Below are positions 4,108 through 40,843 of a stretch of 64,000 nt of DNA, piece by piece. Location of the stretch: contig CAZLDI010000003.1 of assembly GCA_964558415.1 (NCBI GenBank), positions 136,627-200,626 on the forward strand, read 5' to 3'. The number at the start of each line of letters is the position of its first letter. Positions within the stretch are counted from its first letter, which is position 1. Source of the stretch: an uncultured Dehalococcoidia bacterium. Its GTDB lineage: Bacteria > Chloroflexota > Dehalococcoidia > SM23-28-2 > RBG-16-64-32. The notes under the pieces are model-generated. The model ran no database searches, had not been told where the DNA came from, and saw nothing but the letters and a program-made list of their open reading frames with translations. Position numbers and translations under genes: made by a program.

Positions 4108-5202
4108 GTGGACGTACTCCGCCGCTCGCTGATGGTCAGCGCCGAAGCGGATGCGCTGCCAGGCCTGCGCCGCCCCTCCCTGCCACCGCGGCTGGCGCTC
4201 GGCGCGCTTGCGCTCCTCGGCGCCGCGGTAATCGGAGTCGCGCTCGGCCCGACAAGCGTCCCGCTCGATGCGACAGTGCGGATACTGCTGTCGCATCTGC
4301 CGGGCGTCGGGCTGGCCGAAGACGTCCCCGCTAGCTGGCAGAACATCATCTGGCAGCTGCGGCTTCCGCGCGTCCTCCTGGCAGGCGTGGCCGGGGCGAC
4401 GCTGGCGATGGCGGGGGCCACTTACCAGGGCGTGTTTCGCAACCCCCTGGCGGACCCGTATCTCATCGGCGTCGCCACCGGCGCCAACCTCGGTGCGACC
4501 ATCGTGTTGGTGTCTGACGTGAACGTCGCCTGGCACGGGCTGAGCGTCCTACCGCTGGCTGCCTTCGCCGGAGCGCTGATCTCCGTCGTCGCGGTGTACG
4601 GGATAGCGCGCGCCGGGAGCACGGCCTCATCGACGACGCTGATCCTCGCCGGCGTCGCGCTGTCGTCACTGTCAACGGCGATCACGTCATACCTGATGCT
4701 CCAGAGCACAACGAACACCACGCAAGTGTTCGCCGTCGTGCTCGGCGGGTTCAACACCGCATCGTGGGTGAAGCTGGCCTGGGTGCTGCCGTACGCGCTC
4801 CCCGCGGCGATCGTGGTGCTGATGCACGGTCGCATCTTGAACGTGCTCAGCCTGGACGAAGAGCAGGCGCGGCACCTGGGCGTGGACGTCGAACGGACGA
4901 AGCTGCTGCTGTTGGGCGCGGCGTCGCTCGCCGCGGCGGCGGCCGTCTCGGTCAGCGGGACGATCGGCTTTGTCGGCCTCATCGTCCCTCACGCTGTGCG
5001 GATGGTCTGGGGTTCGGACAACCGCCAGCTACTCCCGCTGGTGCTGCTGCTGGGCGCTGCCTTCCTGATCTGCGCGGACCTGGGCGCGAGGACGCTGGAC
5101 CGCGGCGAAGAGATACCGGTGGGGATCATCACCTCCTTCTGTGGGGTGCCATTCTTTCTGTACCTCCTGCGCCGGTCCAGGGGCGGCTACTCTCTGCCAT
5201 GA
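4108..5202 (+). CDS. btuC: FecCD-family ABC permease (BtuC-like)
   Basis: It is a 364-aa polytopic membrane protein with the typical FecCD-family GxxLxxAG region (LAGVAGATLAMAGATYQG). Confidence 0.8.
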   Translation: MDVLRRSLMVSAEADALPGLRRPSLPPRLALGALALLGAAVIGVALGPTSVPLDATVRILLSHLPGVGLAEDVPASWQNIIWQLRLPRVLLAGVAGATLAMAGATYQGVFRNPLADPYLIGVATGANLGATIVLVSDVNVAWHGLSVLPLAAFAGALISVVAVYGIARAGSTASSTTLILAGVALSSLSTAITSYLMLQSTTNTTQVFAVVLGGFNTASWVKLAWVLPYALPAAIVVLMHGRILNVLSLDEEQARHLGVDVERTKLLLLGAASLAAAAAVSVSGTIGFVGLIVPHAVRMVWGSDNRQLLPLVLLLGAAFLICADLGARTLDRGEEIPVGIITSFCGVPFFLYLLRRSRGGYSLP

Positions 5203-6026
5203 GCGTCCCCCTGCCGCACGCCGCCGCCGCCCCGGCGGTCGAGACTCGTTCGCTGTCCGTGGAGTACCGAGCCGGCCGACGGAAGATCGCGGCGCTGCGC
5301 GACGTCAGCCTCGCCCTCGCGGAGGGAGAGCTCGTTGGCCTGGTTGGTCCCAACGGTTCGGGCAAGACGACTCTCGTGCGGGCGATCACGAAGGCGGTGA
5401 CGCCTGCGGCCGGCGTGGTGCGAGTCTGCGGGCAGGACGTGTCTCGCTTGAGGCAGAGCTTCCTCGCCCGTCAGGTCGCGGTCGTACCGCAGGACCCTTC
5501 GCTGCCGGAGGGCTTCAGCGCCTTCGAATGCGTTCTGATGGGACGCACGCCTCACCTCCGCCTGCTACAGAACGAGGGGCAGGAAGACATCGCGGCGGCC
5601 CAACGTGCGATGGCGGCTACGGATACGCTGGAGCTTGCCTCACGGCCTGTATCTGAACTATCCGGCGGCGAAAGGCAGCGCGTGGCCGTCGCGCGGGCGC
5701 TGGCGCAGGAAACCCCGGTGCTCTTACTGGACGAGCCCACTGCGCATCTCGACATAGGCCACCAGGTGTCGGTCCTCGAACTCGTGCGATCACTCTGCCG
5801 GGAAAAGGGGAAAGCTGTGCTCGCCGTTGTGCACGACCTGACGCTCGCCGGCCAGTACTGCGATCGCCTTGTGATGCTGAGCGGCGGCGCAGTCGTCGCG
5901 GAAGGCGAGCCGGGGGATGTGCTCCGCGAGGAGCTGCTCTCGCAGGTGTACGAGGCAGCCGTCACCGTACTGCCTCACCCGCAGACAGGCCGGCCCGTGG
6001 TGGCGCCCTCCGCCCCCGCCGGATAG
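5199..6026 (+). CDS. btuD: ABC transporter ATP-binding protein (BtuD/FecE-like)
   Basis: Walker A GPNGSGKTT, signature LSGGERQR and Walker B LLLDEP are present. Its ATG overlaps the permease stop (ATGA). The long upstream extension of the ORF in the track is rejected. Confidence 0.85.
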   Translation: MSVPLPHAAAAPAVETRSLSVEYRAGRRKIAALRDVSLALAEGELVGLVGPNGSGKTTLVRAITKAVTPAAGVVRVCGQDVSRLRQSFLARQVAVVPQDPSLPEGFSAFECVLMGRTPHLRLLQNEGQEDIAAAQRAMAATDTLELASRPVSELSGGERQRVAVARALAQETPVLLLDEPTAHLDIGHQVSVLELVRSLCREKGKAVLAVVHDLTLAGQYCDRLVMLSGGAVVAEGEPGDVLREELLSQVYEAAVTVLPHPQTGRPVVAPSAPAG

Positions 6027-6129
6027 ACCGGCCCGGCCATCGCGCCCCTTCCCGCTCATCCTGAGGTTCTCGTAGGATGAGCGGGGCGACACCGTTCCGG
6101 CCGGTGCAAACGCCCCGTGGAGAAGACAT

Positions 6130-6702
6130 ATGGCCCGCTCGAAGAAATCGATGCTGTACACGCGGTCCGGGGACGCGGGCACCACCGCGCTTTTCGGCGG
6201 CGGACGCGTGCCTAAGGACCACCCACGCGTCGAGGCGTACGGCGCGGTTGATGAGCTGAACTCCACGCTCGGCGTCGCGGCTGCCTTCGTCTCGCAGCGA
6301 ACGCTCGCGAAAGCGCTGCAGAACATCCAGAACGAGTTGTTCAACGTCGGGTCGGAACTCGCGAGCGAGACGGGTGGGAAGGCGGCGGCTGCTGGCCATA
6401 TGTTCATCGACCCGGACGACAAGATCGCCGCACTTGAGCGGCTGATCGACCAGTACGACGCAAAGGCGCCGCCGCTGCGCACGTTCATCCTGCCCTCCGG
6501 CTCGCAGGCGGGGGCGCTGCTCCACCTCTGCCGGACGGTCTGCCGGCGCGCCGAGAGGGCAGTCGTGCGGCTCTCGCGAGAAGAGCCGGTGAACCCGGAG
6601 CTGGTACGCTACCTCAACCGCCTGTCCGACCTGCTGTTCGTGCTCGCCCGCTACGTGAACAAGGCGGCGAAGAAGCCTGAGACGCCCTGGCGCAAGGGGT
6701 GA
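6130..6702 (+). CDS. PduO-type ATP:cob(I)alamin adenosyltransferase
   Basis: The N-terminus is MYTRSGDAGTT and the protein is ~190 aa, typical of PduO/MMAB-type adenosyltransferases. It sits in the B12 operon. Confidence 0.8.
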   Translation: MARSKKSMLYTRSGDAGTTALFGGGRVPKDHPRVEAYGAVDELNSTLGVAAAFVSQRTLAKALQNIQNELFNVGSELASETGGKAAAAGHMFIDPDDKIAALERLIDQYDAKAPPLRTFILPSGSQAGALLHLCRTVCRRAERAVVRLSREEPVNPELVRYLNRLSDLLFVLARYVNKAAKKPETPWRKG

Positions 6703-7340
6703 CGGACGTGACCACTCGACTCTTGCTCGCCCGTCACGGCGCCTTCGACCGCAGCGGCACAATCGGTGGGCCGGACGATGGCCTCAATGCACTGGGCCGG
6801 CGCGAGGCCGAGGCGCTGGCCTGCTACCTGGCTGATCGAGACGTAGCCTCAATCTACTCCAGCACTCTCAAGCGTGCCCTGCAGACCGCCGAGATAGTCA
6901 GCGGGCAGCTGGGCCTGGGAGTCCGTCCCGAGCCACGTCTTCGCGAGTGGGACCCAGGCGAGTGGATGGGCGTCCCCGAGGAAGAGATCAAGGCGAAATA
7001 TCCTGTAGAATGGCACCGCCTTCAGACCGACCCAGGGTTCACTCCTCCAGGAGGGGAGCATCTATCTGATCTTGTCGAGCGCGTATACGAAGCGGTCGGG
7101 GAAATCGCCGGCGCGCACCCGAACGAGTCTGTGCTGCTGGTCAGCCACGGCGGTGCGCTCAGCGCGCTTATCTGCAGAGTCCTTCACGTTGATTTCGATG
7201 CGCTTTCCCGCGCCTACTTCCGCGGCGAGCCGCCGTTCACGGTGGTCAGGTGCGCCGTTTCGACAGTGGAGTTTCGCGAGGCCGGGCCCGTGCTCCTCTC
7301 CCTCAACGACGCCTGCCATCTGGACGGACTCACTCCTTGA
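6699..7340 (+). CDS. Histidine phosphatase family protein (phosphoglycerate mutase-like; plausibly an alpha-ribazole phosphatase CobC analogue)
   Basis: The RHG catalytic motif (LLARHGAFD) is present. The GTG start overlaps the PduO stop. The cobalamin-operon context suggests CobC. Confidence 0.7.
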   Translation: MTDVTTRLLLARHGAFDRSGTIGGPDDGLNALGRREAEALACYLADRDVASIYSSTLKRALQTAEIVSGQLGLGVRPEPRLREWDPGEWMGVPEEEIKAKYPVEWHRLQTDPGFTPPGGEHLSDLVERVYEAVGEIAGAHPNESVLLVSHGGALSALICRVLHVDFDALSRAYFRGEPPFTVVRCAVSTVEFREAGPVLLSLNDACHLDGLTP

Positions 7341-8041
7341 TCCCGGTCTCCGACTCCCCGCAGTCCCGCACCTTCCCCTACGTCAACGTCGCGCTCATCG
7401 TTTCCTCCGTCCTTGTCTTTCTGTACGAATTGACGCTCTCGTTGGCCGACGTCAATCGCTTCTACTTCGACCACGGCGTCGTGCCACGCCAGCTCGTCGA
7501 CTGGCTGGAGGACCCATCAGGCGTCACGGAGCCGCTGACCGTGGTGACCTCGGCGTTTGTGCACGGTGGCTGGCTGCACCTCGTGGGGAACATGCTCTAC
7601 CTCTGGGTGTTTGGCGACAACGTCGAGGACGCGCTGGGCCACGTCAAGTACGGAGCGTTCTACGTCGTGTCGGCGACCGGCGCGGTGGCGCTACAGGTGG
7701 CGGTGGACACCAACGAAGTGATCCCGATGGTCGGCGCGAGCGGCGCGATCGCAGGAGTGATGGGCGCCTACCTCGTCCTCTACCCGACGGCCAGGGTGAA
7801 CACGTTGATCTGGTTCTTCCCGGTGCCCGTGCCTGCCGTCGTTCTGATCGGCGTCTGGTTCTTGATGCAGCTCCTCAGCGGCACAGCGGCTCTCGGCGGC
7901 GACACGCTGTCAGAGCAGGCTGTCGCCTTCTGGGCGCATGTGGGCGGGTTCGTCACCGGCTTCGCGATAGTCCTGGGCGCGCGTCCGTTCATTCGCGTCC
8001 GGCCGCTGCACGCGCGCCGACGCCGGACGGATATGTGGTGA
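7337..8041 (+). CDS. Rhomboid family intramembrane serine protease
   Basis: The GASGAIAGVMGAY catalytic Ser motif, the HGGWLHLxxNM motif and a later His are present. The start is uncertain: a TTG at 7337 is chosen just after the upstream stop, while the ORF-track ATG at 7250 would overlap the preceding gene. Confidence 0.75.
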   Translation: MIPVSDSPQSRTFPYVNVALIVSSVLVFLYELTLSLADVNRFYFDHGVVPRQLVDWLEDPSGVTEPLTVVTSAFVHGGWLHLVGNMLYLWVFGDNVEDALGHVKYGAFYVVSATGAVALQVAVDTNEVIPMVGASGAIAGVMGAYLVLYPTARVNTLIWFFPVPVPAVVLIGVWFLMQLLSGTAALGGDTLSEQAVAFWAHVGGFVTGFAIVLGARPFIRVRPLHARRRRTDMW

Positions 8042-8081
8042 GCGGGCATCGCAGCGGGTGGCGATCTAGTGCCCATCAGCA

Positions 8082-8109
8082 GGGGCGCGTCATGATGCGC
8101 CCCTACGCC
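8082..8109. repeat. REP-like GC-rich hairpin palindrome (copy 1), GGGGCGCGTCATGATGCGCCCCTACGCC
   Basis: It is a near-perfect inverted repeat (stem GGGGCGC / GCGCCCC around a GTCATGAT loop) located about 80 nt upstream of the RAYT start. Confidence 0.7.
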
Positions 8110-8186
8110 GCGCATCCACTCGCCTGCTTGCCAAGGGTGACATCGGGACGTTGCATCTTCTGTGGACCGTCATTACGGTGGGCGTC

Positions 8187-8780
8187 ATGCGATACGATCC
8201 GCGAATACATCAGCGGCGATCTGTCCGCCTCCCATACTATGATTACCGCTCGAACGGGGCATACTTCGTCACAATCTGCACGCATCAACGAGAGGCTTTG
8301 TTCAATGACCACAGGTTCAAAGCAGCGACCGAAGATTCGTGGTGCGCCATCCCGCGCCATTATCCGCAGGCGGAGATCGACGAGTTCATCGTTATGCCCA
8401 ACCACGTTCACGGAATCATTCGGATTCACTGCGCAACCACCGTAGGGGCGCGTCATGATGCGCCCCTACGCCCCGAAATCCCCAGAGCCTCCGTTCTTCA
8501 GCGTCGCTCATTGGGCGCAATCGTTCTGCAATTCAAGTCGGCATCCGCTAAGCGAATCAACGAACTGAGGTCTAACCCGGGCGGCCGGGTCTGGCAGCGC
8601 AATTATTACGAGCGTGTATTGCGAGACGAGAGGGAACTGGACGCGGCGCGGGATTACATCCTGGATAACCCACGAAAGTGGGACGACGACATCAACAACC
8701 CGAAGAACATCCATCGTCTGGGGGTTCCGAAACGCCGAGGTGGGTTCTCCAGCGAAACGCAACGGTCCGGCAAGCGGTAA
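8187..8780 (+). mobile_element. REP-associated tyrosine transposase (RAYT, IS200/IS605-like Y1 transposase)
   Basis: The HuH motif NHVHGII, a C-terminal WQRNYYER catalytic-Tyr region and the N-terminal YFVTICTHQRE block are present. An alternative ATG start lies at 8151. Confidence 0.75.
8442..8471. repeat. REP-like hairpin palindrome (copy 2), CGTAGGGGCGCGTCATGATGCGCCCCTACG, embedded in-frame in the RAYT gene
   Basis: A 28-nt core is identical to copy 1 and has a longer 11-bp stem. It is translated as VGARHDAPLR within a roughly 15-aa insertion between the HuH motif and the conserved K/R-rich helix. Confidence 0.7.
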
Positions 8781-8893
8781 GTGGTGTCAGAGCGCATCAT
8801 TGACGTGCCCCCCCCCCCTCATTGACAACCCTCCGGCGCGGGTGTAGCTTTCGCTTATCCGCAGGCATATCGCGACGCAGGGGAGGTCTCACC

Positions 8894-9979
8894 ATGGCTA
8901 TCGATGTTGACGTACTGCAGAAGCTGAGCACTGAGGAGGACCTGCCCGAGCTTGACCTGAGCTGGCTGCGTCCGGACGACCACGAGAAGGTGGAGCGCGT
9001 CACGGCCGGCCGCCGCGGGATGACGCTGGACGAGATCGAGCGCGGGCGCGAGGTGCCTGCGCACGTGAGCGCCAACACCATCCGCCCCCGCGACGCGCGC
9101 GAGCGGCCCGACGCGCCGCGCACCGGCCAGTACTACTCGGATAAGGCGGACGTGTGGTCGGACAACTCGCGGCTGCTGTACGAGGAGGCGGTCCAGCGCC
9201 AGTGGTCTTCGGCCACGGACATCCCCTGGCACACGATCGAGCCGCTGCCGGACGACCTGGAGCGCGCGATGTGCCAGCTCTGCACCTTCTTGACCGAGGT
9301 CGAGTTCATCGCCGGGGACGCGCCGGCGCAGTGGCTGCGCAAGATCCCGAACGACTACTACGAGACGAAGCTGTTCCTCCTTACGCAGATCATGGATGAG
9401 GCGCGCCACCTGGATGTCTTCCGCAAGCGCGCCTTCGCCAACGGCGGCGGGCTGCTCTCCGAGAGCCAGTCCGGCCCCTCTCTGCGCATCATCCTGGACG
9501 CGAAGGACTTCACCGAGATGTCCGCGATCATGCACGTCTTCGCGGAGGGGTTCGTGCAGAGCCTCTTCCGCACCGGCGAACTGGTCTCCTTCAACGAGGC
9601 AGAGAAGACGATCTACCGTCTCTGCGCGCAGGACGAGTCACGGCACCTGGGCTTCGGCGTGATGCACCTGAAGTACATCCTGGAGAACGAGCCGGAGCGC
9701 CGGGAGGAGCTGCACCACTACCTTGACCAGGTCGAGGGCCCGCTCTCGCTGGACATCACGCAGGGGATCAGTGCCACGACGCCCTTCTTCGACGAGGCGG
9801 TGATGATCCTGGCCGGCGGCGGGCTGAAGAACGTCGACGTGGGGATGCAGAAGCTGATGGACATCCGCAAGAAGCAGGTGAACGAGTACATGCACCGCCT
9901 CGAGGTCGCCGGCCTCGGCGACCGCCGCGACCGCATGAACCCGTTCTTCCGCTCGCTGCTGGACCCGCCGCGGAATTAG
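8894..9979 (+). CDS. Ferritin-like diiron-carboxylate protein, ligand-complete (candidate catalytic alpha subunit; acyl-ACP-desaturase-like motif spacing)
   Basis: TEVE...MDEARH...FAEG...QDESRH gives E/ExxH/E/ExxH with spacings of about 35/49/31 residues. The start is placed at the ATG after a GGAGG-like site; the ORF track gives 8822. Confidence 0.55.
   Translation: MAIDVDVLQKLSTEEDLPELDLSWLRPDDHEKVERVTAGRRGMTLDEIERGREVPAHVSANTIRPRDARERPDAPRTGQYYSDKADVWSDNSRLLYEEAVQRQWSSATDIPWHTIEPLPDDLERAMCQLCTFLTEVEFIAGDAPAQWLRKIPNDYYETKLFLLTQIMDEARHLDVFRKRAFANGGGLLSESQSGPSLRIILDAKDFTEMSAIMHVFAEGFVQSLFRTGELVSFNEAEKTIYRLCAQDESRHLGFGVMHLKYILENEPERREELHHYLDQVEGPLSLDITQGISATTPFFDEAVMILAGGGLKNVDVGMQKLMDIRKKQVNEYMHRLEVAGLGDRRDRMNPFFRSLLDPPRN
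9949..9979. repeat. Direct repeat copy 1 (CCGCTCGCTGCTGGACCCGCCGCGGAATTAG) encoding the C-terminus RSLLDPPRN*
   Basis: It matches 10421-10451 at 31 of 33 positions, and both mismatches are synonymous. Confidence 0.8.
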
Positions 9980-10112
9980 GGCGGGCGATCCGCGCCCAAT
10001 ACTTTTCGACGAATCGCCCAGATGCGCCTAAGCTTCGACACGCCCACCGCGGATGGAATCAATGCGCGTCGCAAGTATTCTGTGATAACACGTATCGTAT
10101 GATAGGTAGGCT

Positions 10113-10451
10113 ATGAGTTTCGGTGAGTTGTTGGCCGTTGTTCTAGTTTACGGCACCCCTTTGGGCGTCTCCCTTGTTGTTGGCTACCGCGTGAGTCGGC
10201 TTCTACCGCAGCGGATACTTGGCGCCCTGGCAAGCGGGTTAGCTGCTCTCGCTGCGTACACGCTGTTCATTGCAGCGTTAGCGATCATCATTGACGTTAC
10301 CACTGAGGACACCGGTGATTTCCCGCAATGGTTCTACGTGGCCTCAATACTCGTGCTAGCCTCTCTGCCCCTCTTCCTTGCAGGGACGGTCGTGGGATGG
10401 TTCGGAGCGAAGCGAAGTCACCGCTCGCTGCTCGACCCGCCGCGGAACTAG
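10113..10451 (+). CDS. Small hydrophobic membrane protein (3 predicted TM) inside a lower-GC insertion
   Basis: It is a 112-aa ORF with hydrophobic segments. It lies in a roughly 470-bp segment whose GC is clearly below the surroundings, and its last 10 codons come from the direct repeat. Confidence 0.45.
   Translation: MSFGELLAVVLVYGTPLGVSLVVGYRVSRLLPQRILGALASGLAALAAYTLFIAALAIIIDVTTEDTGDFPQWFYVASILVLASLPLFLAGTVVGWFGAKRSHRSLLDPPRN
10421..10451. repeat. Direct repeat copy 2
   Basis: See copy 1. Confidence 0.8.
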
Positions 10452-10618
10452 GGGATAGGTCGGAATGGTTCGGCCAGCCCGCTATGGCCTAGGCCTTCAA
10501 TTCCTTAGCGCCCGCTAAGTTACCCCCTTGACTCGCGCGTCGCCCTGTGGCTAAATGAGGGATGCTCTCCCCGCGAAGGGGGCGCGAATCCCGGTCCTGA
10601 CCAGAAGGAGAACCGCCC

Positions 10619-12049
10619 ATGGCTGAAACAGCCACCGACATCCCCGCGGACCTGGCGCAAGTCGCCGAGGAGAAGGGCATCCCGCCGGACCTCGTGCGCC
10701 GCGCGCTGGCGCTCGGCTTCCCCGCAGATGCGATCAAGATGCAGCTCAGCCAGCCCGACGCCAGCGCCGAAGCCGCCGAGCTGTTCATCAGCGAGCAGGA
10801 GCGCATCCGCGCCGGCGGCGAGATCACGCTGTCACCGGAGCTGGCTGAGCTCGCGCGCGAACACGACTGGCCGGAGGCGCTCGTGAAACGCGCGCTGAAG
10901 CTGGGCGCGCCGGTGGAGATGATCACGAACCAGATCAAGGCCGGCGTGCGGCCCGACCAGGCGGAAGGCTTCATCCGCCAGCAGGAGATCGCGCGCGACC
11001 AGGGGGTTGAGGCGACGCTGGACCTCTCCTGGATGCATGTCCCGACGGAGTGGGGGATACGGGTGCGCCCGGGCAAGAGGGGCCTCACCGTCGGCATGCT
11101 GAACGTCAGCACCTATGCGGACATCCCTGATTTCTGGCCCCACCAGAGCGAGATGCCGCGCGGCGCCTACCCGCTGCCCGGCGTGCCCGCGATGGGCTAC
11201 AGCATCTACGAGAAGGCGGAGCTGTGGTCCGAGAACTCCGCGGACCTCTACGAAGAAGCGATCCAGCGGCGCTGGCGGCCCTCCACCGACGTCAACTGGA
11301 ACAGCATCGAGCCGCTGCCGGATGTGATCGAGAAGGCGATGTGCCAGCTCTGCACCTTTCTCTGCGAGAAGGGGCTCCTGGAAGGCGACATCGTCGGGCG
11401 CTGGCTGCCGGAGATGTCTTACGGCTACCACGAGGTCAAGCTCTACCTTTCGACCGCGGCGTTCGACTACGCGCACCAGTTCGAGGTGTTCCGCAAGCGC
11501 GCGATGAGCAACGGCGGCGGCATGGGCCTCCAGAGCCCCGGCTACTTCCACCGCGCGATCATCGACGCGCGCGCCTGGACGGAGACGTCCGTGCTCTCCC
11601 ACATCCTCTCGAACAGCCATGTGATGGGGCTTTACGAGATCGGTCTCTACGTGGCGCACAACGAGGCGGAGCACCAGATCTTCAGCTACTGCATGCAGGA
11701 CACCGCGCGCCAGATCGCCTACGGCATTCAGCACCTCAAGTACTTCCTGCTGCGCCACGACGCACGGCGCCCTGAGGTCCAGAACTACCTGAACAAAGGC
11801 GAAGCGGTGTTCAACTTCGAGTCGGAGCGCGACACGCCGATCCGAGAGGCGCTGATCATCCTGCTGGGCGGCGGCATCGAGAAGGACCAGCTTCTGGACG
11901 GAACGCGCAAGCTGGAGTACTTTAAGCAGCGCTGGGTGCGCGCCTACGTGTCGCGTCTGGCAGCCGGGGGCATAGACCGCGCGGATAAGCTGCACCCGTC
12001 CCTCAAGAAATACGTCGACGAGCCGGCGGCGGCCCAGGCCGCAGCATAA
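10619..12049 (+). CDS. Ferritin-like paralog lacking all diiron ligands (candidate structural beta subunit) with an N-terminal tandem-repeat helical domain
   Basis: It is a clear paralog of the 8894-9979 protein (shared blocks LYEEA[IV]QR, SIEPLPD, AMCQLCTFL, VFRKRA.NGGG, HLKY). The ExxH sites are replaced (DYAHQ, QDTARQ) and the carboxylates are replaced (SNS). Two ~45-aa N-terminal repeats have the pattern (IP.DLVrRALaLGfP). AAGGAG sits 8 nt before the ATG. Confidence 0.55.
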   Translation: MAETATDIPADLAQVAEEKGIPPDLVRRALALGFPADAIKMQLSQPDASAEAAELFISEQERIRAGGEITLSPELAELAREHDWPEALVKRALKLGAPVEMITNQIKAGVRPDQAEGFIRQQEIARDQGVEATLDLSWMHVPTEWGIRVRPGKRGLTVGMLNVSTYADIPDFWPHQSEMPRGAYPLPGVPAMGYSIYEKAELWSENSADLYEEAIQRRWRPSTDVNWNSIEPLPDVIEKAMCQLCTFLCEKGLLEGDIVGRWLPEMSYGYHEVKLYLSTAAFDYAHQFEVFRKRAMSNGGGMGLQSPGYFHRAIIDARAWTETSVLSHILSNSHVMGLYEIGLYVAHNEAEHQIFSYCMQDTARQIAYGIQHLKYFLLRHDARRPEVQNYLNKGEAVFNFESERDTPIREALIILLGGGIEKDQLLDGTRKLEYFKQRWVRAYVSRLAAGGIDRADKLHPSLKKYVDEPAAAQAAA

Positions 12050-12070
12050 GCGAGAACAGGAGATCTCCCA

Positions 12071-12520
12071 ATGACACAAGACGTTAAGGTCAAGGCCACG
12101 TTCCCCTCCGTGGAGTGGTTCAACGCGATCAAAGACCTGATCAACATAGACCCCGCGTACAAGCACTTCGGGACCTGCGACTCCACCGTCGGCCTCAAGA
12201 TACCGGAGCTGGAGAAGTACTTTCTCCTCACGTTCGAGGCGTTCGAAATCACGGACATCCGCGAGGTCAGCGACCGGGATGCGGAGAACACGGACTTCTG
12301 GATGGAGATGTCCTACGCGCGCTGGAAAGAGATGATCCAGAACATCAAGGACAATGGCAAGGCGGACCTCCATCACACCCTGAACACGATCGACCTCGAG
12401 GAGCCGGAGGGCCTGGCGCGTTCGAACGACGGTTACCGGCGCGACGCCTTCTACCGCTTCAACCAGTCTTACCAGCAGTACTTCGACACATCTGCGAAGA
12501 TCGACACCACCTTCCTGTAG
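12071..12520 (+). CDS. Small soluble protein, possibly SCP2 sterol-carrier-like
   Basis: It is a 149-aa ORF starting 21 nt after the beta-like gene. The SCP2 resemblance (DFWMEMSYARWKEMIQN.KDNGKADL) is weak. Confidence 0.4.
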   Translation: MTQDVKVKATFPSVEWFNAIKDLINIDPAYKHFGTCDSTVGLKIPELEKYFLLTFEAFEITDIREVSDRDAENTDFWMEMSYARWKEMIQNIKDNGKADLHHTLNTIDLEEPEGLARSNDGYRRDAFYRFNQSYQQYFDTSAKIDTTFL

Positions 12521-12548
12521 GGCGGTTTACATGGCATCGCTCGCAGGG

Positions 12549-12572
12549 GCGGCCCTTTGTGGCCGCCCTGCC
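12549..12572 (+). terminator. GC-rich hairpin after the SCP2-like gene
   Basis: A GGGCGGCC-ctttgt-GGCCGCCC 8-bp stem is present, with no clear U-tract. Confidence 0.35.
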
Positions 12573-12615
12573 CGTCTATCGCTAACCTCGCACATGATGG
12601 ACCGCGCGGGAACCC

Positions 12616-13578
12616 ATGCCTGACCGTCACCCGGGCATCCGGCAGATATCGATGCCCATCCCCTTCCCGCTGGCGGGCGTGCATTCGTACCTGATCGAGA
12701 CGGGAGACGGCTTCGCGATGGTCGACGCCGGCTTCCCCTCCGAAGAGGCGCTCGCCCGAATGCAGGCCGGCATCCGCGAGATCTGCGGCGGCCCGGAGAA
12801 GATTCGGACCGTATTCATCACCCACTATCACCCGGACCACTGCGGCCTCGCGGGCTGGCTGGAAGCGCGCGGCGCCCAGATCGTGCTGCACGAACGCGAC
12901 TGGTCGCAGGTGCAGTCGATCACGTCCAACGCGCCGCCGAAGCCCGAGGACTACGGCGGCGCAACCGTGGCCGCGATGGCGACGGCGACCAACTTCTCCT
13001 TCGAAGAGATGCGCAGCCAGGTCCAGCGCGTGCGTTACCCCGTGGAGAGCCCGCAGCTGGTGCGCGGCGGCGAGACGATCAGCGTGGGCGGCCGCGAGTT
13101 CAAGATGGTCTGGACGCCCGGTCACACGGAGGGCCATCTCTGCATCCTGGACAGCGCCGAGGACTTACTGTTCTCAGGCGATCACATGCTCGCGCGGATC
13201 ACGCCCCACATCGGCATGTGGCACAGCAACGACGGCGACAGCCCCCTGCACAAGTTCGAGGAATCGCTGGCGCTGATCGAGCAGCTCAACCCGGCCCGCG
13301 CGCTACCGGCCCACGAAGGGCCGATCGAGAACGTGGCCGAGCGGGCGCGCGACCTGATCCGCCACCACGAAGAGCGCCGCACGCGCGTGCTGGAAGCGAT
13401 GGCCGGCCCGCCACGCCCGGCGCTGGACATCGCCCAGACCGTCTTCAAGGGCCGCGAAGGCCCGATGCAGACGTTCCTGGCCCTCTCGGAGACCCTCGCG
13501 CACCTGGACGCCCTGACTCGTGAGGGGCTGGTGGTGCGCGAAGAAGGCCCCGAGCCGGCGTTATACCGTTTGGCGTAG
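12616..13578 (+). CDS. MBL-fold metallo-hydrolase
   Basis: The HYHPDH (HxHxDH) motif is present in a 320-aa protein. Confidence 0.8.
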   Translation: MPDRHPGIRQISMPIPFPLAGVHSYLIETGDGFAMVDAGFPSEEALARMQAGIREICGGPEKIRTVFITHYHPDHCGLAGWLEARGAQIVLHERDWSQVQSITSNAPPKPEDYGGATVAAMATATNFSFEEMRSQVQRVRYPVESPQLVRGGETISVGGREFKMVWTPGHTEGHLCILDSAEDLLFSGDHMLARITPHIGMWHSNDGDSPLHKFEESLALIEQLNPARALPAHEGPIENVAERARDLIRHHEERRTRVLEAMAGPPRPALDIAQTVFKGREGPMQTFLALSETLAHLDALTREGLVVREEGPEPALYRLA

Positions 13579-13611
13579 AGGCGGCCCGCCTGGCCGTCCA
13601 ACCCTCGTCCC

Positions 13612-14424
13612 CTAGCGGAACTCCACGCGCGGGCGGAACCGCTCCTCCGCGCGCGCCACGAGCTCCTCCGCGAGCGCGCTTGCGCCGCGCGATAGCAGTT
13701 GCTGCAGGAGCGGCCGCCGCGGCCGCACGTACTGGAGACGGCGTGGCACGCGGCCCATCTCGCTGGCCATGTCGATCGCGGCCTCCACATCACCCAGCTC
13801 GTCGATCAGGCCCAGCTCTTTCGCCTTCGTGGCCGTGTACATCTCTCCGGTGGCGTACTCGCGCACGACCTCGGACGGCAGGTTGCGCGCCTTCGCAACG
13901 GCGTCGACGAACCAGCCGTAGTATTCGTCGGTCAGCGCCTCCACCTTCTGCTTCTCCTCGTCGCTGGGCTCGCGCCATGGCTGGAACATCGCCTTCAGCC
14001 GGCCCTGGTGGGTGACCACCATCTTCACGCCGACCTTCTCCATCAGCTCCTGCACTACCGGTCGTGTGAAAATGACGCCGATCGATCCCACCAGCGCCGT
14101 CGGCAGCGCCACGACCTTGGACGCCCCGCAGGCGATCAGATAGCCCCCCGAAAGCCCCGCGCTCATCACGAACGCCACGGTCGGCTTCCGCGCGGAGAGA
14201 CGCTGCAGCCCGCGGAAGATCGCGTCGGACACGCTCGCTGACCCGCCGGGCGAGTCGATCTCGACGACGACCGCGCGAATGCGCGCGTCGTCTCGCAACG
14301 CCTTCAGCATGCGCACGGTCTCTGGCCCGCGCACCTGTGCGCCGATCGCTCCGGTGATCTCCACGACCGCAATGCGCGGCCGCGACCAGGGGAGGTTAAG
14401 GCGGGCCGGATCGATGACTTCCAT
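13612..14424 (-). CDS. sppA: Signal peptide peptidase SppA (S49 family, 36K type)
   Basis: The VVEIDSPGGSASVSD and SAGLSGGYLIA S49 motifs are present. Confidence 0.85.
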   Translation of the reverse strand: MEVIDPARLNLPWSRPRIAVVEITGAIGAQVRGPETVRMLKALRDDARIRAVVVEIDSPGGSASVSDAIFRGLQRLSARKPTVAFVMSAGLSGGYLIACGASKVVALPTALVGSIGVIFTRPVVQELMEKVGVKMVVTHQGRLKAMFQPWREPSDEEKQKVEALTDEYYGWFVDAVAKARNLPSEVVREYATGEMYTATKAKELGLIDELGDVEAAIDMASEMGRVPRRLQYVRPRRPLLQQLLSRGASALAEELVARAEERFRPRVEFR

Positions 14425-14491
14425 GCCGTCAGTGTAGGGATAGACGTTCAGGTCTGTCCACAGGAACTGCTACTTCGCCCGGGCGCTAACC

Positions 14492-14968
14492 TTATTCGGC
14501 CAACGCGTCCAGCTCGCGAAGCGTCTCGTCGATCGTGGGGATCTCCCATTGCTGCCAGCCCAGATACGTATAGCGCACAATCCCCTTCGCGTCGATGATG
14601 AACAACGCCGGTCGCTGGCCGAGCGAGACCATCGCGCTCTTCACGTCGTACAGGCGGTACACCTCGCGCTCCGGGTCAGGCAGGCAGGGGAACGGCATGT
14701 CGTTTCGCTCGAAGTAAGCCCGCGCGCCCTCAAGCGTGTCGACTGCCAGCGCGAGCACCCGCGCGCCGCGCTCCTCGAAGTCCGCATATCGGTCCCGCAA
14801 CTGCGAGAGATGCCGCCGGCAGAACGGTCAGCCGAAGCCCCGCAGGAACACCAGCACCACCGGCCGCCCGCGCAGCGCCGACAGCCGGACCTGCGTTCCG
14901 TCGGTCGCGGTCAACTCGAAGTCCGGCGCCTCGGACCCGGTCTGGACGGCGTCGCTCGAGACTGGCAT
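14492..14968 (-). CDS. AhpC/TSA-redoxin (peroxiredoxin-like thiol-disulfide oxidoreductase) with one in-frame TGA at 14828-14830, either selenocysteine (UxxC) or a nonsense pseudogene
   Basis: ORFs 14828-15025 and 14492-14800 are in the same frame and together read ...[66 protein letters not shown].... The stop falls exactly where the first Cys of a CPFC redox motif is expected. The start is chosen at MPVSS (14968). Confidence 0.55.
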
Positions 14969-15036
14969 GGCGCGTCCGATTCTAGGGCAGTCGCCGAGCG
15001 GCGTCAAACGAACGCGTGCTATCATCTAGCCGCGTT

Positions 15037-16177
15037 GCGCATCATCATTTTTACGGGCCGAGGCGGCAGTGGCGTCAGCACGCTCGCCGCCGCCACCGCC
15101 GTCGCGATCGCCGGCGGTGGGCAGCGGACACTCGCGTTCGGCCTCGGCCCCGGCCTCGGTGCGGTGCTGGGCGAGCTGCTCTCGCACGAGCCGAAGGCCG
15201 TTGCGAAGGGGTTGGACGCCGCTGAGGGCGGCCACCGCTACGACGCCCCGGACGAGTTCCGCGACTGGCTCGGCGACCTGCTGGACTGGCGCGGGATGCA
15301 GGCGGAGCTGGCGGAAGACCTGGCGGCGCTGCCCGGCATGAACCACGTCGGCCGGCTGCTGGACCTTGAGGAACGCGTGAGCGGCGCCCGCTACGACTGC
15401 ATCGTCGTCGACGGCGCGCCTCTCGACCAGTTCCTCGGCCTCCCCCCCGGTCTCGAAGCGGCCGCGCGCTGGCTCGAGCGCCTGTTCGCCCCCCGCGAGC
15501 AGAGCGTCTTCGAGCCGTTCATCCGCGTCTTCGCCGGCGACTACGCGGAGACCGGCGAGGAGGTCTTCGACCGCGGACGCGAGCTGCTGACGCGCCTCGC
15601 GCAGGTCCGGCAGACGCTCGTCGATTCGGATATTTGCTCGGTGCGGGTAGTGCTGCCGCCGGACGGCGACGCCCTCGCTAGCGCGCGGGGCGCGCTGTCC
15701 GCTCTCAGTCTGTTCTCCTTCGCCACCGATGCCCTGCTGCTTTCACCGGCACTGCCCGCCCCGGTCAAAGACCCTTTCTTCGCCGGACGCCTCGCTGATC
15801 AAGAACAGGCGACGAAGGGCCTCGCGGCGCTGGTCAAGCCGATGCCCGTGCTGACGTCGACGCTATCGCCGCGCCCGCCGCGCGGCGCATCCGCGCTCGC
15901 CGATCTGGCCGCTGCGGTCTATGGCAGCCGTGCGTCTACCGACGTGCTGCACCGGGGCGACGCGCACTCCGTCTCGCGAGAAGGCGGCCGCTATGTGCTG
16001 TCCGTGGTTCTCCCGTTCGCGCGCAAGGACGACCTGAGCCTGGAGCAAGGCGACGACGGCGTGGCGGTGCACCTGAACGGCCGCCGCGCGGTGTTCCCCC
16101 TGCCGGAGGAAGCGCGCCACCAGCAGGCCGTCGCCTGGACGTTCGAGCCGCCGGTGCTGCGGGTGACGTTCGGGTAG
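15037..16177 (+). CDS. ArsA/GET3-family ATPase-like protein with a degenerate Walker A and a C-terminal ArsA_HSP20-like domain
   Basis: The N-terminus reads IIIFTGRGGSGVST (canonical ArsA is GKGGVGKTT) and ArsA-family blocks follow (YDCIVVDGAP). A C-terminal beta-sandwich-like segment is present. TTG at 15037 is the first possible start, and the long upstream ORF extension is antisense to the redoxin gene. Confidence 0.55.
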
Positions 16178-40132: not shown

Positions 40133-40843
40133 CTATCGCGCCATCCTCTCGACGGCGCGGCGGAAGGCAGTGTGCGCCTTGCCTTTGATAACGCCGCTGT
40201 GCCCGAAGCAAGCAGAAGCGAACTCCAGTGCGGCCAGCTTGCGCATGCTCTCTCTCGCCTGCGCCATATCCTCCGTGAACATCCCGAGCGGCGCGCCGAC
40301 TCGGCCGAACATGTTTCCCGCGGCGTCTCCGGCAAACAGGACGCCGCGGTTCCGCGGCCAGAGATAAGCGAGGTGGCCCGCGGTGTGACCGGGGCTATGA
40401 ATCACTGTGATTCCGCCAGCGATCGGCAGCTCCTCTCCGTCCCCGACCTCGTCCAGGGTTTGCACAGTCTCCAGCCTGGGATGAAAGAAACGGTCGACAA
40501 CGGGGCCCAGTGTCCTTCCGGAGAGCGTCGCTCTGTTTGCCGTCGGCATCGGTCGCTCGCCGCGCACTAACGGCGCGTCCAGCGGATGAATATAGACCTT
40601 CGCGCCGGTTGCCTTGACGAGTGCGGCGAGACTGCCGGTGTGGTCCACGTGGTGATGAGTTATCAGGATGTGCTTGAGGTCTGTCGCCTGCCGTCCGAGG
40701 GCGAACAGCGTCTTGAGAAACTTCTCCGATCTGCCTGAAAGGCCGGAGTCAACCAGCGTGACCTCTTCATCTGAGATAAGGAAGGCGTGCACATACAGCA
40801 TGCTGATGTCGTAGACGCCCGGCAGGACCGGTTCCGGAGACAT
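40133..40843 (-). CDS. MBL-fold metallo-hydrolase
   Basis: The ITHHHVDHTGS (HxHxDH) motif is present. Confidence 0.8.
   Translation of the reverse strand: MSPEPVLPGVYDISMLYVHAFLISDEEVTLVDSGLSGRSEKFLKTLFALGRQATDLKHILITHHHVDHTGSLAALVKATGAKVYIHPLDAPLVRGERPMPTANRATLSGRTLGPVVDRFFHPRLETVQTLDEVGDGEELPIAGGITVIHSPGHTAGHLAYLWPRNRGVLFAGDAAGNMFGRVGAPLGMFTEDMAQARESMRKLAALEFASACFGHSGVIKGKAHTAFRRAVERMAR

Follow-up and report, generated by a model that had tools for sequence, protein, structure and literature searches.

A conserved Dehalococcoidia module of an R2-like protein, its ligand-less paralog, and an SCP2-fold protein: a possible lipid oxidase

Genes and features at the locus

We analyzed a 64,000-nucleotide stretch of DNA from an uncultured Dehalococcoidia bacterium (the window), on the plus strand of which lie three genes that we call A, B, and C. 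Gene A (8894..9979, +) encodes a ferritin-like (R2-like) protein of 361 residues in which the dimetal-carboxylate ligand set is complete. Its open reading frame spans 8822-9979, and we placed the start at the ATG at 8894 based on the N termini of homologs (MAID...) and a GGGAGG ribosome-binding site. The six-ligand E / ExxH / E / ExxH site has Glu as the first carboxylate and lacks the radical Tyr; the ligands are E137 (codon 9302-9304), E169 (9398-9400), H172 (9407-9409), E218 (9545-9547), E248 (9635-9637), and H251 (9644-9646), all on the plus strand. This set is unchanged in 40 homologs and in 52 of 52 A-type genes from the GTDB loci considered below, and in HMMER alignments both ExxH motifs pair with metal ligands of R2lox. 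A preliminary description, made from the letters of this locus, had reported these motifs and a full set, which we confirm; of the two glutamates in its TEVE motif, however, E137 is likely the ligand because residue 135 differs (Q, G, S, M, or T) among otherwise ligand-complete relatives while residue 137 never does. The fold of A is predicted to be ferritin-like from a structural model of B and the A–B alignment; a Pfam search with A gave no match.

Gene B (10619..12049, +) encodes a 476-residue ligand-less paralog of A. The two proteins are 38% identical over 344 residues (E=3e-80), which confirms their paralogy, with the aligned region of B spanning residues 134-469 (nt 11018-12025, +) and its helical ferritin-like core residues 207-450 (nt 11237-11968, +). 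At the positions aligned with the ligands of A, B carries A/G, Y, Q, N, T, and Q, and the ligand set is degenerate in 78 of 78 B-type genes from the GTDB loci. In sister clades B keeps both His, with Lys in place of E248 (pattern QAAHGKH), and these proteins might still bind something. Within its own clade, B is 65-76% identical. In a neighbor-joining tree A is monophyletic and B is monophyletic, indicating that the ligand-less lineage is old and has been maintained; the pairing of a ligand-complete with a ligand-less protein is real and is kept across many genomes. No family HMM of Pfam or NCBIfam scored above threshold with B, and the NCBIfam R2lox models did not match it.

The N terminus of B carries two repeats, which we delimited by internal BLASTP and the structural model. 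Repeat 1 (residues 11-67; 10649..10819, +) is built of three short helices and then a long one (H10-18, H23-31, H36-43, and H50-64 in the model), and repeat 2 (residues 74-129; 10838..11005, +) has the same architecture. The halves are 42% identical over 60 residues (E=1e-9), so the repeat noted earlier is genuine, but its period is 63 residues (IPPDLVRRAL at residue 21, WPEALVKRAL at residue 84) rather than about 45. The suggestion that it is a novel domain was not supported: the repeats are confined to one clade, repeat 1 weakly matches the Ddi1 UBA domain (E=0.1), and the region equivalent to repeat 2 in B of a sister clade scores 33-38 bits against the SinI gathering score of 31.4 in 3 of 8 proteins scanned, reaching the cut-off only as a sum of weak stretches. 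The B protein of the window itself gave no match to Pfam SinI (PF08671) at E<=1. We conclude that the repeats look like SinI/UBA-type helical motifs, not an unprecedented domain.

Gene C (12071..12520, +) starts 21 nt past the stop codon of B, has an AGGAG ribosome-binding site, and encodes a 149-residue protein with the SCP2 fold, which may carry hydrophobic ligands. The SCP2 alpha/beta fold anticipated for this protein was found. The C protein of the window did not match Pfam PF02036 (SCP2), the best of its relatives reached 14.3 bits against a cut-off of 21.3, and PDB sequence and profile searches with C returned no match. A C-terminal motif, ARSxDGYRRDAFYRFNQ, is highly conserved and was matched by no profile in Pfam, NCBIfam, or PDB.

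Between A and B, the window holds an insertion that is not part of the conserved module (9949..10453, +), recognized from its repeats, blastn matches, and GC content. It is 472 bp long and edged by 33-nt direct repeats (9949-9981 and 10421-10453; repeat family D4) that copy the last codons and stop codon of A according to blastn, and its GC content is 0.56 compared to 0.66 in the flanks. Inside it lies an open reading frame for a 112-residue membrane protein (10113-10451, +) that forms a singleton protein cluster. The preliminary description had overlooked both the insertion and this open reading frame, while the four it listed are all present. The insertion is missing in relatives, where annotated A–B spacers are 163 and 302 nt (L003, L004), and in the genome of the window it may uncouple A from B–C transcription. 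An Rfam scan of 8000-14000 gave no match, a scan for promoters and terminators did not exceed shuffle expectation, and a GC-rich hairpin after C was not significant (z=-1.8).

Distribution and gene order

Scanning GTDB, we found 572 related stretches, of which the best 80 loci, from species-level genomes, were kept for neighbor comparison. Clustering at 90% leaves 2531 homologs in the family and clustering at 50% leaves 760 clusters, while species-level genomes carry at least 572 sites. The preliminary description had staked its proposal on synteny in other genomes; when all open reading frames of the 80 kept loci were clustered, only the A/B and C families recurred, and the module is conserved across Dehalococcoidia (Chloroflexota). 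The MBL hydrolase gene at 12616-13578 (Pfam Lactamase_B, E=2.9e-25), previously counted with the unit, does not belong to it: none of the 80 related loci has an MBL homolog adjoining the module, and tblastn gave a single weak match, 73 residues long and about 7.8 kb upstream in L053. The reported lack of an adjacent reductase or ferredoxin extends to relatives, as none adjoins the module in the window or is conserved among the 80 loci. Other neighbors reflect clade-local synteny (a B12-salvage ABC ATPase, SDR, rhomboid, and S49 peptidase), and proteobacterial and SAR202-type loci have mixed neighbors (ABC exporters, DUF3604, acyl-CoA dehydrogenase, OYE, and glycine cleavage).

C lies directly 3' of B in 67 of 73 loci. 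In 39 of 69, A is the close upstream neighbor of B, and in about 40% it is apart from B–C. Thus, the tightest genetic link is B–C, not A–B, and A may act alone. These counts could mean that B and C are a unit of their own, a metal-free ferritin-like scaffold with an SCP2 carrier serving lipid binding, transport, or regulation, and that A is an independent, loosely linked homodimeric oxidase. Several A-type paralogs stand solo beside unrelated genes, in keeping with such independence, and ligand-degenerate proteins make up about half of the diverse representatives of the family, suggesting that ligand-less forms radiated widely on their own. Nevertheless, we hold a separate B–C unit to be unlikely, if plausible, for the following reasons: The order A-B-C(-C2) is fixed wherever all three genes are present, and in eleven loci A and B are 0-6 nt apart, a spacing suggestive of coupled translation. 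A–B pairs without C exist (L045, L080, L082, and the second pair of L024), and three MAGs with split loci carry A on another contig. Finally, the block YEEAxQRxW...D..W is invariant in both A and B, which fits a shared interface or structural core.

Downstream of one solo A-type paralog in another genome are two SCP2 proteins with CrtO-like flavoproteins between them, and one of these SCP2 proteins passes the Pfam SCP2 threshold (22.1 versus 21.3 bits); this recurrence of SCP2 favors the main reading given below. CrtO-like flavoproteins beside solo A paralogs were seen in one MAG only (L002, L085), and neither the window nor any other locus has them; we therefore treat them as a lead outside the A/B/C model.

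A proposed role in oxidizing hydrophobic substrates

Our main reading, to which we assign a probability of about one half, is that the module represents a new family of R2-like oxidases that act on a lipid-like substrate together with a pseudo-subunit and an SCP2 carrier. The three would form a self-contained conserved module of aerobic Dehalococcoidia. A would be the catalytic component, its six ligands holding an O2-activating pair of metals, Fe/Fe or Mn/Fe. B, an old paralog in which the metal site has been lost and which appears to be under purifying selection, would most likely pair with A as a non-catalytic, pseudo-symmetric partner, for which yeast Rnr2/Rnr4, PaaA/PaaC, and the alpha/beta subunits of multicomponent monooxygenases provide precedents. 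In the clade of the window, B would have gained its two SinI/UBA-like helical repeats presumably for protein–protein contacts. C would either pass a hydrophobic substrate on to A/B or take up the product, and the general ferredoxin or reductase pools of the cell would supply the electrons. We expect that the module most likely oxidizes a hydrophobic substrate; the SCP2 fold and analogy point to this class, with long-chain alkyl, fatty, or isoprenoid compounds as candidates.

A bolder version, which we offer tentatively and consider improbable as a whole, is that A/B/C perform an undescribed O2-dependent lipid or hydrocarbon oxidation in which metal-free B, permanently coupled to SCP2, is the substrate-delivery half of the R2-like Mn/Fe or Fe/Fe oxidase A. 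The system would then be characteristic of aerobic Dehalococcoidia including marine SAR202. If true, metal-free B and SCP2 as a delivery half would represent an architecture new to ferritin-like oxygenases, and the system would be a candidate route for oxidation of long-chain or recalcitrant aliphatic carbon, or for lineage-specific lipid synthesis. The A/B pair also offers a natural case for studying how a metal-free paralog comes to be retained.

Comparison with known families

A, B, and C belong to no described family. None of the three had a match above threshold in Pfam or NCBIfam, PDB sequence and profile searches with A gave marginal matches to VlmB and R2lox only, and Foldseek against PDB gave no match at E<=1e-3. 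These searches agree with the preliminary description, which could not assign the pair, and they did not give the outcome that it had named as counting against a two-subunit enzyme, placement of both proteins in a well-characterized single-subunit family. Literature combining ferritin-like or diiron proteins with SCP2, SAR202, or Chloroflexi yielded no description of the family. This is a large family in a globally abundant lineage for which we found no Pfam or NCBIfam model, structure, or published description.

Membership of the ferritin-like superfamily, the source annotation (ferritin-like domain-containing protein), and the presence of RNR R2 among the top structural matches would be compatible with A and B serving iron storage or detoxification (ferritin, Dps, or rubrerythrin-like) or as an RNR beta subunit. 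We rejected the ferritin or iron-storage identity for both proteins, and class I RNR beta on a Ribonuc_red_sm score of 13.1 bits (cut-off 33.6) and on Phe176 of A (H172+4), which is invariant at the position of the radical Tyr; such roles are very improbable.

In yeast Rnr2/Rnr4, PaaA/PaaC, and the alpha/beta subunits of bacterial multicomponent monooxygenases, a metal-complete ferritin-like subunit and a ligand-lost paralog are encoded next to each other, as in A/B; those proteins pair as heteromers, as A and B may do. The alpha/beta parallel drawn earlier is a fair analogy, and it could be taken further, with A/B/C as a true multicomponent monooxygenase (sMMO, phenol, or toluene hydroxylase) or PaaABCE-type epoxidase that uses aromatic or CoA-thioester substrates and has C as a small effector or bridging subunit. 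The alpha subunit of multicomponent monooxygenases is about 500 residues long and belongs to Pfam Phenol_Hydrox. None of the HMMs of the heteromeric-pair families match A/B, and the module has no reductase, effector, or PaaB-like component. Specifically, we found no Phenol_Hydrox match, MmoB/DmpM-type effector, or operon-encoded NADH reductase (with or without a Rieske ferredoxin) on the one hand, and no PaaA/PaaC HMM match, PaaB bridging subunit, or PaaE reductase on the other; we rejected membership of either group, which is very unlikely.

The VlmB azoxy synthase and other AurF-clan diiron oxygenases, together with cyanobacterial aldehyde-deformylating oxygenase (ADO), share only 11-14% identity, have a single subunit type, and lack an SCP2 partner; Pfam AurF (PF11583) did not match A. 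UbiJ/UbiT of ubiquinone biosynthesis resemble the role proposed for C in that SCP2 proteins assist presentation of lipid substrates to hydroxylases, although Ubi-pathway genes are unlinked to the module. The partners of UbiJ are flavin or U32-type hydroxylases, not R2-like proteins.

R2lox, the closest relative that has been characterized, is similar to A only marginally in sequence (PDB E about 0.02; NCBIfam NF006200 and NF006202, 32.5 bits against a cut-off of 194 and 16 bits against 315). Its hallmarks include a Mn/Fe cofactor and a long-chain fatty acid bound as ligand. It forms a Tyr-Val ether crosslink through a Tyr five residues before the third carboxylate. By helix-register counting only, the register of this residue (Tyr162) is occupied in A by Met213 (E218-5), which is nearly invariant. 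A and B, unlike R2lox, have an extra conserved N-terminal arm of about 100 residues, and to our knowledge R2lox has no obligate ligand-less paralog. The function of R2lox is a long-standing open question. In haloarchaea, genes for R2lox lie in clusters with genes for ferredoxin and sterol carriers, and hexadecane induces them, as stated in PMC9314684 citing Kumar et al. 2020; this is a precedent for the main reading, and the A/B/C module has no counterpart of the linked ferredoxin. As a sister family of R2lox whose SCP2 partner is fixed and whose pseudo-subunit looks obligate, the A/B/C module would provide a cleaner genetic handle on the lipid role of R2-like ligand-binding oxidases.

Gene order and conservation of the module

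The four open reading frames reported at 8822-13578 in the preliminary description were all found as described. On the plus strand, A (8894-9979), a 361-residue protein with a predicted ferritin-like (R2-like) fold, has its best start at ATG 8894, with homologs beginning 'MAID...' and GGGAGG 8 nt upstream. It is followed by B (10619-12049, plus strand), a 476-residue paralog of A, and by the 149-residue SCP2-fold protein C (12071-12520, plus strand), which starts 21 nt past B and has an AGGAG site. We scanned one genome per GTDB species, which returned at least 572 related stretches, and kept 80 loci, SAR202 among them. When all ORFs of these loci were clustered, the only families in common were A/B and C; no reductase, ferredoxin, or MBL hydrolase was common to the 80. 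Thus, the earlier remark that neither reductase nor ferredoxin lies adjacent extends to the related loci, while the MBL hydrolase (12616-13578; Pfam Lactamase_B, 2.9e-25) must be dropped from the unit: in none of the 80 loci does a homolog of it adjoin the module, the only tblastn match being a weak one of 73 aa, about 7.8 kb upstream in L053. This hydrolase scores 164 bits to the NCBIfam Strvi_7410 family (cut-off 525), a GC-rich hairpin (~12546-12568) separates its gene from C, and a distant second MBL paralog lies at ~40136-40822 on the minus strand.

The synteny of A, B, and C that the preliminary description had proposed to check was found. C comes immediately after B in 67 of 73 loci. 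In 39 of 69, A is upstream of B by no more than 1.2 kb, with a gap of 0-6 nt in eleven of those; the tightest link in the module is therefore that between B and C. The main rival to a joint A-B-C system takes B-C as a unit of its own, with A acting independently, and is supported by this weaker A-B linkage and by the many solo A paralogs. In three MAGs with B-C and no adjacent A, A is on another contig (L025/L076, L008/L078, and L032/L084). In distant clades C is usually joined by another SCP2 paralog, in the order A-B-C-C2, with examples in a more distant Dehalococcoidia/SAR202-type clade (L040-L079, e.g., L055:6870-9911 and L062:4828-7991). Solo ligand-complete paralogs with ~62-64% identity to A have different surroundings (L085:6001-11500, L002:7640-11086, L086, and L087): in one MAG their neighbors are CrtO/CrtI-like FAD oxidoreductases and a pair of SCP2 proteins, and in three genomes the solo paralog is transcribed divergently from the genes of an ethylbenzene-dehydrogenase-type molybdoenzyme (EB_dh, Fer4_11, and Nitrate_red_del in 3/3; molybdopterin subunit seen only in L085).

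For A, B, and C we counted 2531, 850, and 647 homologs, respectively, the named sources all being Chloroflexota or Dehalococcoidia MAGs, and exhaustive searching gave 760 clusters at 50% identity. The A-B-C-C2 cluster also appears in a complete chromosome labelled Gammaproteobacteria (L083, OZ244128.1, Ca. Azotimanducaceae, 6793-9847), one of the loci kept, and in MAGs that bear the labels 'Proteobacteria' and 'Klebsiella pneumoniae' (L074, L058), reflecting either horizontal transfer out of Chloroflexota or mislabelled bins.

Upstream of the module lie a BtuD/FecE-like ABC ATPase (within 4764-8041), a PduO-type cobalamin adenosyltransferase (6130-6702), a histidine phosphatase (6699-7340), and a rhomboid protein (7250-8041); the downstream side has a convergent S49 peptidase (13612-14424), an AhpC/TSA fragment, and an ArsA-like ATPase (all within 13612-16177). 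The synteny of both flanks does not extend beyond the clade of the window. A gene resembling those of REP-associated tyrosine transposases (8151-8780; NCBIfam REP_Tyr_transpos, 74 bits vs an 80-bit cut-off; Pfam Y1_Tnp) has a 27-32-nt palindrome (AGGGGCGCGTCATGATGCGCCCCTACG) just upstream (8081-8112) and again inside it (8444-8475), with no more copies in the window. The A-B spacer holds a 472-bp segment (9949-10453; 56% GC vs 66%) bounded on each side by a 33-nt direct repeat, a duplication of the end of A with its stop codon; the segment encodes a 112-aa multi-pass membrane ORF (10113-10451) ending in 'RSLLDPPRN', as A does. Relatives lack the segment (annotated spacers of 163 and 302 nt), which resembles a recent insertion that duplicated its target.

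Ligand sites and the N-terminal repeat of B

A and B are 38% identical over 344 residues (E=3e-80), which bears out their paralogy, and alignment to homologs upholds the claim that A keeps a complete ligand set while B has replaced every ligand. The A set (E137, E169-x-x-H172, E218, and E248-x-x-H251) is invariant among 40 aligned homologs, and both ExxH motifs fall on metal ligands of Geobacillus R2lox in a HMMER alignment; the corresponding residues of B are A/G, Y, Q, N, T, and Q. The second Glu of 'TEVE' (E137) is the probable ligand because, in otherwise ligand-complete 50%-identity representatives, position 135 varies while 137 never does. A has Phe176 at the RNR radical Tyr position (H172+4) and Glu as first carboxylate, features known from class Ic R2 and R2lox, the positions being matched by register counting.

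Reading the aligned residues from ORFs called in all kept loci, we found 52 of 52 A-type genes ligand-complete and 78 of 78 B-type genes degenerate. The B pattern is E-A/G-x-Q/H/W-N-x-Q in the window clade and Q-A-A/N-H-G-K-H in a more distant one, where both His are kept, all carboxylates are lost, and Lys occupies the E248 site; the latter may form a metal-free yet structured site. A and B are each monophyletic in an NJ tree and hence stem from a single old duplication, after which the ligand-less lineage was retained over the long term. Among full-length 50%-identity representatives (P0361-P0510), about half are ligand-degenerate, and Phe at the RNR-Tyr position is near-universal in both classes; some have other N-terminal additions (e.g., a SnoaL-like domain in P0412), and P0509 fuses an AurF-passing core to a lycopene-cyclase-like fragment.

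The two-repeat N-terminus attributed to B is real, its first 130 residues having arisen by genuine tandem duplication (halves 42% identical over 60 aa, E=1e-9), with a period of 63 aa and not the ~45 aa first given. Each repeat is predicted to comprise three short helices and one long helix. The sole match of the window's repeat region was weak, to the Ddi1 UBA domain (E 0.1-0.4), and the equivalent sister-clade region reached the Pfam SinI gathering score in 3 of 8 proteins scanned (33-38 bits vs 31.4). We read the repeats as a putative pair of small helical protein-interaction modules, SinI/UBA-like, and no longer as a domain without precedent. They are clade-specific, occurring only in B proteins at least ~46% identical to that of the window; distant B proteins (~355-375 aa) lack them.

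Family placement and proposed function

A, B, and C matched nothing above threshold in Pfam or NCBIfam, in keeping with the preliminary description, which could not assign the pair to a described enzyme family from sequence alone, and literature searches found no description of the A/B/C family. The best NCBIfam match of A was R2lox (32.5 bits vs a 194-bit cut-off), and PDB sequence and profile searches gave only marginal matches, to a VlmB homolog and R2lox. Structural comparison gave 22.6 for the VlmB homolog 6d9f, 21.1 for ADO, 20.4 for R2lox, 20.1 for RNR R2, 19.8 for MMOH beta, 15.1 for PaaC, 14.0 for PaaA, 13.9 for AurF, 13.8 for acyl-ACP desaturase, and about 11 for ferritin/Dps; no Foldseek match was better than E=5e-3. 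These results together place the A/B family, through the model of B and its alignment with A, among O2-activating R2-like enzymes, with a fold near R2lox, VlmB, and ADO and without a close solved relative, and displace the desaturase/PaaA likeness first proposed. Membership tests of the module as R2lox, BMM, PaaABCE, RNR beta, or AurF/VlmB failed for each.

The results demonstrate an R2-like protein with all its ligands, a conserved paralog that lacks them, and an SCP2-fold protein, in tight operon-like linkage with one another. The alpha/beta-type diiron oxygenase reading is partly supported: it keeps its ligand-complete/ligand-less pair and C, and loses the MBL hydrolase and the desaturase/PaaA resemblance. 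We propose that A would bind an Fe/Fe or Mn/Fe pair and activate O2, with B as a pseudo-subunit partner by analogy to Rnr2/Rnr4, PaaA/PaaC, and BMM alpha/beta. ADO and soluble desaturases draw electrons from general ferredoxin pools, and A could do likewise. C would present a hydrophobic substrate. That this substrate is lipid-like is supported, by analogy, by two contexts. A passage in PMC9314684, citing Kumar et al. 2020, describes haloarchaeal R2lox genes as clustered with those for ferredoxin and sterol carriers and as hexadecane-responsive. In another Dehalococcoidia MAG (one genome only), two CrtO-like flavoproteins and two SCP2 proteins come after a solo A-type paralog, and one of these SCP2 proteins scores above the Pfam cut-off for SCP2.

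The module is a large, conserved, uncharacterised candidate enzyme system in an ecologically important lineage. Its architecture has precedents: we liken the module to a ferritin-like oxygenase of heteromeric type that is served by a lipid carrier, and conclude that it is a new family-level variant whose superfamily and architectural logic are both known.
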